From a virus (Duplodnaviria; Heunggongvirae; Uroviricota; Caudoviricetes), in IMG/VR virus record IMGVR_UViG_2579778745_000003, positions 1-27,110 of that record: 27,110 nucleotides of DNA, one strand, 5' to 3'. Numbering within the stretch: the first letter of the stretch is position 1; every line of letters begins with the position of its first letter. The notes beneath the pieces are model-generated. The model was given only the letters and a program-made list of their open reading frames with translations. It made no database searches and was not told where the DNA came from. Shown piece after piece: positions 14,648-15,235 of this stretch. The position numbers and the translations under genes are program-made.

Positions 14648-14743
14648 GTTTGTTTAATAAACGCACAATTGGATCTAATAACCTCTTTTTTTTAAAGGCG
14701 AAAATATGTACCCTAAATGAGTTATAAGGCAGGCGAGGTTATA

Positions 14744-15235
14744 ATGAGAAAACTATTACTACCGTTATTATTTATGGCTGGGACTGTTAATGCAGCATCA
14801 AGCGTAAAGGAGATTTGTACCGATTATACGAAATACCTTGGGCACGTTTACGGATTTGCTGTCAGTGAAGACGAATCCATGCGCAAGAAGTTACTGTCAG
14901 ATATGAAGCGCCTTAAACTTTCTGAAGCGATGGTGCAGCAGGAACTGTATAAAGTCTCAACCAACGCAAATGCTAAATACCAATATTCTCGCCTATTAAA
15001 CCCCGATGCAAATGAGATCAATCGAAGCACTTTCGATTATATGGTAAAGGCATGCGAAACCGCTCCTGATTTTGCTATCCCTAGCTGGGGTGTGCTGGTG
15101 GCGAGCAATGCCGTTAATAAAGAAGATGTTGGAAGAAATGGCATTGACTCAATCAGAAATGCCCCAGGAATGCGCCATCAAAACGTGCAGGGTACGCTTG
15201 AAGAACGAGCCAGGGGGCCGGGTGTAGCTCCATAA
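14744..15235 (+). CDS. secreted protein whose C-terminus copies a Sit (tape-measure) motif; candidate superinfection-exclusion factor in the sim position
   Basis: Sec signal peptide MRKLLLPLLFMAGTVNA|ASS after SD gagg (start ATG 14744; the ORF is open from 14717). C-terminal GIDSIRNAPGMRHQNVQGTLEERARGPG matches Sit NGRGMRREVVQGTLEERARGKG and GIDGLFDKLRNSPGMRKNN. Confidence 0.7.
   Translation: MRKLLLPLLFMAGTVNAASSVKEICTDYTKYLGHVYGFAVSEDESMRKKLLSDMKRLKLSEAMVQQELYKVSTNANAKYQYSRLLNPDANEINRSTFDYMVKACETAPDFAIPSWGVLVASNAVNKEDVGRNGIDSIRNAPGMRHQNVQGTLEERARGPGVAP

Follow-up and report, generated by a model that had tools for sequence, protein, structure and literature searches.

A long form of SimA from a P1-like phage-plasmid carries a homologue of a Sit tape-measure segment and is a possible periplasmic decoy

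We analysed a 27,110-nucleotide (nt) stretch of DNA, hereafter the window, from IMG/VR virus record IMGVR_UViG_2579778745_000003. The window is a segment of a P1-like phage-plasmid, and its positions 14500-15900 match P1, P7 and their relatives by megablast. The gene of interest lies in an open reading frame (ORF) at 14717..15235 on the + strand, at the same position as simA in the sim (superimmunity) locus of P1. Judged from sequence comparison, its product is the long form of SimA, of which the 52-amino-acid (aa) SimA of P1 is a truncated stub, and its C-terminal tail holds a homologous copy of a segment of the phage's own tape measure protein, Sit. The protein is predicted to be secreted, and the reading that we tentatively prefer is that the tail mimics the Sit segment as a decoy and so excludes superinfecting P1-like phages. 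Much of this had been put forward in a first-pass annotation of the DNA. Its secreted protein and protein-level similarity to Sit held up on closer analysis, which also placed the gene in the sim locus and found the motif to be private; its suggestion that the gene might correspond to P1 simC did not hold up.

The injection transglycosylase Sit of the window (19322..22684, + strand; 1120 aa) was assigned from a full-length match to phrog_2533 and from the P1 annotation. It is a tape measure and is essential (PMC10695390), and carries an SLT transglycosylase domain at residues 738-843 (21533-21850; Pfam SLT, E=1.7e-14). By BLASTP, residues 122-162 of the ORF product (15107..15229, + strand) align to Sit residues 917-953 with 21/41 identities and E=8e-8. 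The Sit segment, NAVGVNDLVNKFMNGRGMRREVVQGTLEERARGKGTA (copy 1; 22070..22180, + strand), lies just after the transglycosylase domain, and the core of the motif on the SimA side is GIDSIRNAPGMRHQNVQGTLEERARGPG (G133-G160; 15140-15223, + strand). A second and weaker match joins ORF residues 134-147 to Sit residues 993-1006 (E=0.005). It falls in a partial copy 2, MGIDGLFDKLRNSPGMRKNN (residues 987-1006; 22280..22339, + strand), which is found in E. coli-type Sit only and is absent from the Salmonella, Klebsiella and Cronobacter types. Copy 2 has two allelic forms, LRNSPGMRKNN and LINARGMRSNN, and which of them occurs is independent of the SimA type.

The first-pass annotation had drawn attention to VQGTLEERARG, 11 consecutive residues identical in the ORF tail and Sit. 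This identity is exact and sits within a match well above chance: the Smith-Waterman score is 90, compared with 32 +/- 4 for 1000 shuffled tails (z=13). The Sit coordinates given there were also good to within a few bases (N930-G951 = 22109-22174; G988-N1006 = 22283-22339). Furthermore, ORF-Sit was the only cross-match of any sim-locus protein among all six-frame ORFs of the window (E=1.5e-6), and the cross-matches to PHROG profiles were reciprocal (1.6e-5 for the ORF against the Sit PHROG and 2.3e-4 for Sit against the SimA PHROG). With the longer homologue from Ro157c2YLVW, the alignment to Sit reaches 47 residues (E=5.6e-9); the copy in the tail is about 30-45 residues long, and the segment shared with Sit spans 41-47 residues. 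When the window pair was compared over a 26-codon frame, 16 residues were identical, nine of them through different codons, and nucleotide identity was 50/78. Across five lineages, 13-17 of the 26 residues are identical between SimA and Sit, the majority again through different codons. The similarity is therefore conserved at the protein level and does not reflect a recent DNA duplication, as had been argued from the sequence. Recent gene conversion was rejected as its source on the same ground, codon usage differing between the copies. In two other loci (L011 and L013), 19-21 of 21-24 nt are identical around NxxGMRH, and short conversion tracts are possible there.

The segment is both conserved and exclusive. 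It can be written G[IV]xDLxxKF[ML]NxxGMRxxVVQGTLxxRA[RY]GxG and is present in all 12 divergent Sit proteins examined, which come from E. coli, Salmonella, Klebsiella, Cronobacter and an unassigned lineage. In these proteins the motif forms a conserved island between variable flanks: its 25-residue windows score 0.77-0.85, the best of them ranking seventh among all Sit windows (0.85), and the flanks score 0.62 (after the SLT domain) and 0.38. The most conserved 25-residue window of Sit across the 12 lineages is another one, DGQVISDLGGSGAKPTMQLADNTVS (residues 1033-1057; 22418-22492), which at 0.95 stands above the SLT domain. On the SimA side, where 13 lineages were compared, NxxGMRxQ is the best-conserved part of the family, its score of 0.88 exceeding the 0.78 of the folded domain. 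About half of the SimA lineages also have the other half of the motif, VxGxLxxRARGxG (0.47 overall), and the rest of the tail is a mosaic of unrelated modules.

We then looked for the motif in other proteins. A 52-position profile, made from the segments in the window and the tails of SimA proteins, was run with HMMER on a set of 1.84 billion representative proteins. Nine proteins matched at E<=1e-3, namely three Sit-like (1081-1124 aa), three SimA-like and three fragments. This small number removes the concern, raised with the initial proposal, that the motif might be a common low-complexity feature of unrelated proteins. All nine matches are Sit-like or SimA-like, and by this measure the motif is private to P1-group Sit-like and SimA-like proteins, making a shared specific function likelier than a generic property; Sit (P1 gp037) and long SimA have in common a segment found in no other protein family. 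A word-indexed search with Sit residues 895-1024 returned just six frameshifted fragments, and a metagenome scan yielded no relatives of protein P0040.

To what extent do the two copies vary together? Six lineages have a full motif. In their 26-residue frames, identities between cognate SimA and Sit add up to 96, compared with an average of 88 for permuted pairs (P=0.014); the first 12 residues alone give no significant result in the same test (P=0.06-0.12). The most divergent lineage, a SimA-like gene in locus L090 and a sit gene in locus L091, has GSM in both proteins, where every other Sit has GTL and the other full-motif SimA proteins keep Leu at the third position (GTL, GSL or GAL). This pair shares 17/26 residues, 11 of them through different codons. 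The two loci (L090 10001-16079 and L091 3001-6372) are on one 94-kb contig, IMGVR_UViG_2871745582_000001, on which the SimA-like gene is about 16 kb from sit, on the opposite strand, and does not adjoin the tail genes. It is located near an rdgC homologue and a gene for an 881-aa fused C5-cytosine / N6-adenine DNA methyltransferase. A strict co-variation of the two residues before GMR was also considered; it was striking in the first 12 loci and failed in a larger panel. Taken together, the comparisons suggest one old acquisition followed by long independent conservation, with some pressure on the copies to stay matched, and the co-variation itself is suggestive only.

The anatomy of the protein is compatible with a periplasmic role. 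A Sec-type signal peptide, MRKLLLPLLFMAGTVNA (14744..14794, + strand), was assigned by rule from sequence features, with cleavage predicted after A17, between MRKLLLPLLFMAGTVNA and AS. Its n-region is basic, its hydrophobic core spans 12 residues and it has V-N-A at -3 to -1, while N16, A17 and S19 are invariant across the SimA family in an alignment of 21 sequences. These features bear out the earlier assignment of a secreted protein; in the AlphaFold2 model, residues 1-15 have a predicted local distance difference test (pLDDT) score <50. The signal peptide is the sole hydrophobic stretch in the SimA product, and the residue at +1 of the cleavage site is not a lipobox Cys. Since it has no membrane segment beyond the signal peptide and no lipobox, long SimA is predicted to be soluble. 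Its export is likely, and we infer that it resides in the periplasm.

The signal peptide is followed by an all-alpha globular domain, residues 18-128 (14795..15127, + strand). AlphaFold2, run with the 21-sequence alignment, models residues about 20-128 confidently as all-alpha (pLDDT >90), and no structural relatives of this domain were found. It contains two invariant cysteines, Cys25 and Cys104, and many SimA tails have a further Cys pair; such pairs fit an oxidising compartment. The tail that holds the motif, including the whole Sit-homologous stretch, is modelled with low confidence (pLDDT 42-60) and appears flexible, and in the SimA model it is not docked onto the protein's own domain. 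A flexible tail of this kind would leave the motif accessible.

From these elements a mechanism can be sketched. Long SimA would be exported by the Sec pathway and would exist in the periplasm as a soluble protein with a compact all-alpha domain and a flexible tail. In a cell that carries the phage-plasmid, this tail would compete with its counterpart in the Sit that a superinfecting P1-like phage brings in. The contested partner, to which the Sit segment docks, could be part of the host envelope or some other phage protein that is ejected, and genome delivery would be blocked after adsorption. The resident phage's own Sit is assembled into tails in the cytoplasm and would never meet the secreted copy, so that either a decoy or a direct-binding version of the mechanism would be workable for the resident phage.

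The facts that fit the decoy, namely the private motif, the conservation of NxxGMRxQ, the modest cognate co-variation and a compartment separate from virion assembly, fit a decoy for a third partner and a direct binding or poisoning of incoming Sit alike. In the latter case the segment would be a self-association element of Sit, for example in a trans-envelope conduit, and either the tail would cap Sit in a dominant-negative manner or the SimA domain would hold Sit through it, with no third partner needed. The occurrence of GSM in both copies of one lineage is what like-with-like pairing predicts, the two copies of the first motif half in E. coli-type Sit fit a repeated docking unit, and known exclusion proteins such as T4 Imm do bind the tape measure directly. 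Against this reading, AlphaFold2 gives low confidence for the segment in both proteins, and the tail of the SimA model is undocked. We regard direct binding as unlikely and tentatively prefer the decoy. It is also conceivable, although we lean against it, that a single envelope factor, needed for P1-group DNA passage across the periplasm and inner membrane, has both the SimA tail and the Sit segment as ligands; the secreted copy would saturate this factor, and both copies would co-evolve with it from host to host. Finally, periplasmic SimA might serve self-protection or transglycosylase regulation, damping the wall damage caused by Sit of adsorbing phages (lysis-from-without) or modulating murein turnover, with the tail targeting the site of Sit action. 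We consider this very unlikely.

Several observations weigh against the decoy. The exclusion activity of P1 has been attributed to SimC, which is unrelated to the ORF. About half of the SimA lineages keep only NxxGMRxQ, the remainder of the motif being replaced by Cys-containing modules, so that if mimicry is the function this short half must suffice. The matching between the two copies is imperfect: RARG is retained in every SimA tail, also at the place where Sit proteins of other than E. coli type read RAYG; some of the tails resemble a foreign Sit more than their own; and in E. coli a single SimA type is found with either allele of Sit copy 2. The co-variation is weak and comes from six lineages only. 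The AlphaFold2 model of the Sit C-terminus has too low a confidence to place the motif or judge its exposure. A pure decoy leaves the conserved N-terminal domain and the constant YfjT-like neighbour of the gene unaccounted for. Moreover, the promoter PsimA is backed solely by its prediction in the P1 record, the consensus scan did not recover it, and expression in a lysogen is only inferred.

The identity of the ORF product rests on several comparisons. It matches phrog_3933, the SimA family ('simA domain protein' in some sources), with E=1.9e-113 over residues 1-162 of the protein and 1-162 of the 213 profile positions, and it contains the conserved core of the family, CTDYxKYLGH ... LSEAMV ... 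IPSW; the alignment of 21 family members has 35 invariant columns. P1 SimA shares 90% identity with the ORF product over the first 42 residues and is divergent beyond them. Conversely, BLASTP gave no similarity between P1 SimB or SimC and the ORF, its two neighbours or Sit. An alignment with P1 SimA, SimB, SimC and Sit had been proposed as a check, and it returned SimA and Sit and neither of the other two. The idea of orthology to SimC, the classical exclusion protein (Sim) of P1, can draw on the shared locus and on the signal peptide present in both. At the sequence level BLASTP rejects it, with no hit between SimC and the ORF at E<=10 and an N-terminus that is that of SimA, and the chance that it is correct is negligible. 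A similarity between SimC and Sit, mentioned tentatively in the first-pass annotation, amounts to just E=3.5 over 12 residues. Nor is the ORF product a member of the Sit family, as it lacks an SLT domain, a long helical ruler region and hydrophobic segments.

A label of PTP-like phytase (PF14566) was tried for the ORF product and rejected (25.4 bits against a cut-off of 27, and no HCxxGxxR motif). The same label is precomputed on many SimA-family homologues. Since the window protein is below the gathering threshold and has no catalytic motif, these labels are probably a recurring false positive. The NCBI family library gave no match for the ORF, and PADLOC-DB held no family at E<=0.1 for the ORF or its two neighbours. 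The SimA family is already annotated but uncharacterised. A full-text literature search, with Lobocka et al. 2004 beyond its reach, found no paper on the long SimA form or on the SimA/Sit motif. In P1 itself the similarity could not have been noticed, because the P1 stub does not include the motif.

SimA-family proteins are usually about 180-250 aa long, with an extension past the motif. The window allele has no such extension and ends six residues after ERARG; its homology to the 215-aa form of Ro157c2YLVW stops at 15223. This short allele is common: the cluster to which it belongs (P0001) has 153 members, 22 PLSDB records match at 99% identity or more, and the window-type tail is found in 14 IMG/VR loci of the allele table. 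A protein identical to the window ORF product is present in several PLSDB plasmids and IMG/VR contigs.

We next considered the locus. The ORF opens the sim locus, with c4-icd-ant diverging from it and pmgC-tub-pmgB-sit downstream; at this position, between the C1 operator/c4 promoters and pmgC, P1 holds simA (52 aa), simB and simC. A SimA gene placed elsewhere was seen in a single divergent lineage, that of L090/L091. Matches were found in 267 PLSDB plasmids, of which 126 have the long form and the others the first 48 residues only. A scan of GTDB genomes gave four loci, a low yield because this collection holds one genome per species. Gene content was counted in 70 complete sim loci. Long SimA is followed by a YfjT-like secreted protein in 51/52 of its loci, and it occurs without SimB and SimC in 51/52; the SimA stub is accompanied by SimB and SimC in 17/17. 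The sole exception to the separation is L058 (IMGVR_UViG_2695420521_000002), which has a long SimA (L007 type, tail LNARGMRTQNTQGALERRALG) plus a SimC-like gene. Long SimA and the SimB+SimC cassette thus behave as alternatives in the sim slot. Since P1 homology ends at 14883 in the window, and the stub accompanies SimB and SimC in every locus that has it, the P1 simA gene reads as the stub that remained after a SimB+SimC cassette replaced the rest of the gene.

In the window, the YfjT-like secreted protein (phrog_3429, 168 aa; 15324..15830, + strand) is 28% identical to Ro157c2YLVW gp34 (E=5e-25). Neighbours of this type are labelled PF27224 YfjT, and their association with long SimA is seen in elements from E. 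coli, Salmonella, Klebsiella and Cronobacter. The two genes look like a conserved two-gene periplasmic module in which the YfjT-like protein is the likely partner of SimA. Next comes a gene for a 394-aa protein (phrog_7086; 15817..17001, + strand) with a hydrophobic segment at about residues 255-280 and a C-terminal SH3_3-like domain, whose match scores 26.0 bits against the Pfam cut-off of 27. A protein of this kind is present in 13/70 loci, the window included, all of which have long SimA and the YfjT-like gene. Its gene belongs to a low-GC (guanine plus cytosine) cassette, with a GC content of 0.34-0.38 across 15300-17000. This agrees with the description of the sim region as a hypervariable, low-GC region of P1-like phage-plasmids (PMC9603915).

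Such mosaicism raises the question of whether the Sit-like tail is an evolutionary relic. An old recombination would have put a piece of sit into a secreted accessory protein whose function lies in the all-alpha domain and the YfjT-like partner and is unconnected with Sit or phage entry, for example as a lysogenic-conversion or envelope-fitness factor. The region is a recombination hotspot with breakpoints inside the gene itself, where P1 homology ends at 14883 and Ro157c2YLVW homology at 15223; the tails are mosaics of unrelated modules, the second motif half is dispensable in half of the lineages, and the folded domain is well conserved and its YfjT-like neighbour constant. A relic should decay, yet NxxGMRxQ is the best-conserved stretch of the family (0.88), the motif has been kept despite extensive synonymous divergence in at least seven lineages from E. 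coli, Salmonella, Klebsiella and Cronobacter elements, and there is cognate matching with Sit. For these reasons we find a relic rather improbable. A number of long SimA genes carry an interruption or a frameshift shortly ahead of the motif or within it (proteins P0007, P0008 and P0016). On the E. albertii plasmid NZ_CP034164.1 (L018 10001-10649) the tblastn match is in two pieces, and shifted SimA tails were seen in some Logan assemblies. These broken genes may be pseudogenes or assembly errors.

With regard to its start, the long-form SimA-family gene was placed at 14744..15235 (+ strand, stop codon included), encoding a 163-aa precursor, on the basis of the ORF list, the phrog_3933 match and the aligned homologues. 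Because a Shine-Dalgarno sequence, GAGG (14735..14738, + strand; sequence inspection), lies 5 nt before the ATG at 14744, and because distant homologues begin at MKK or MRK, this ATG is the likelier start, as the first-pass annotation had it, and the in-frame upstream ATG at 14717 is probably unused. By the same reasoning, the annotated start of P1 simA (MSYKAGEVIM...; 3718-3876 in L001, which is P1) is probably nine codons too far upstream; the corresponding stretch of the window is 14717-14743. Upstream, a C1 repressor operator, AATGCTCTAATAAATTT (14631..14647, - strand; the Oc4/Op51 equivalent), lies between the divergent c4-icd-ant operon and the simA-like gene, at a position that the alignment offset makes homologous to the annotated P1 operator (L001 3632-3648). 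The candidate position of PsimA, 14653..14679 (+ strand), is homologous to the 'predicted sigma 70 promoter PsimA' of P1 (L001 3654-3680) and is a weak match to the consensus.

How does long SimA compare with known systems? P1 SimA (P1_gp043, 'putative superimmunity accessory function') resembles it in locus, orientation to c4-icd-ant and signal peptide; unlike the ORF product, it ends after about 26 mature residues, without the all-alpha domain and the Sit-like tail. P1 SimC (Sim) has in common with it the slot between immI and pmgC, a signal peptide, and a presumed periplasmic site and role, but carries no copy of a tape-measure segment and has no sequence similarity to the ORF product or Sit. 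As related in PMC8546580, the P1 sim locus has been tied experimentally to post-adsorption exclusion (Devlin et al. 1982; Kliem & Dreiseikelmann 1989), and overexpressed Sim (SimC) blocks P1 infection after adsorption (Kliem & Dreiseikelmann 1989). In other phages, T4 Imm binds the tape measure protein (bioRxiv 10.64898/2026.03.06.709160), and exclusion by way of the tape measure or conduit is described for HK97 gp15, TP-J34 Ltp and P22 SieA (PMC10883804). All four are phage-encoded, act after adsorption in the envelope and target a DNA-conduit protein, and long SimA is presumed to be alike in this. Whereas they are inner-membrane proteins or lipoproteins that bind through unrelated folds, long SimA is predicted to be soluble, with no membrane anchor, and by sequence carries a homologous copy of part of its presumed target, which would imply mimicry or competition. 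Exclusion at the injection step is therefore already known; what would be new here, if the function is confirmed, is that a secreted protein is homologous to part of its target.

The passage of P1 DNA through the envelope, and the way in which the sim locus prevents it, have been unsettled since the 1980s. Altogether, our analysis indicates that the simA gene of P1 is the stub of a larger and widespread gene, and it marks Sit residues 917-953 as a short, conserved, otherwise unique and functionally important segment of a tape measure. It also offers a simple mechanism, in which a secreted copy of the Sit segment interferes with entry. A mimic of the target would follow a different logic from the binding of a tape measure by unrelated folds. 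If the tail and the Sit segment do prove to be two ligands of one factor, this would be the first example of a phage that keeps out its relatives with a secreted mimic of its own injection protein, and the tail peptide would be a bait for the entry factor of P1, which has long been sought. In practical terms, P1 serves as a standard tool for transduction, and resistance genes are spread among Enterobacteriaceae by P1-like phage-plasmids (PMC9603915). Whether P1-type phages can enter a strain may depend on the sim cassette that it carries.

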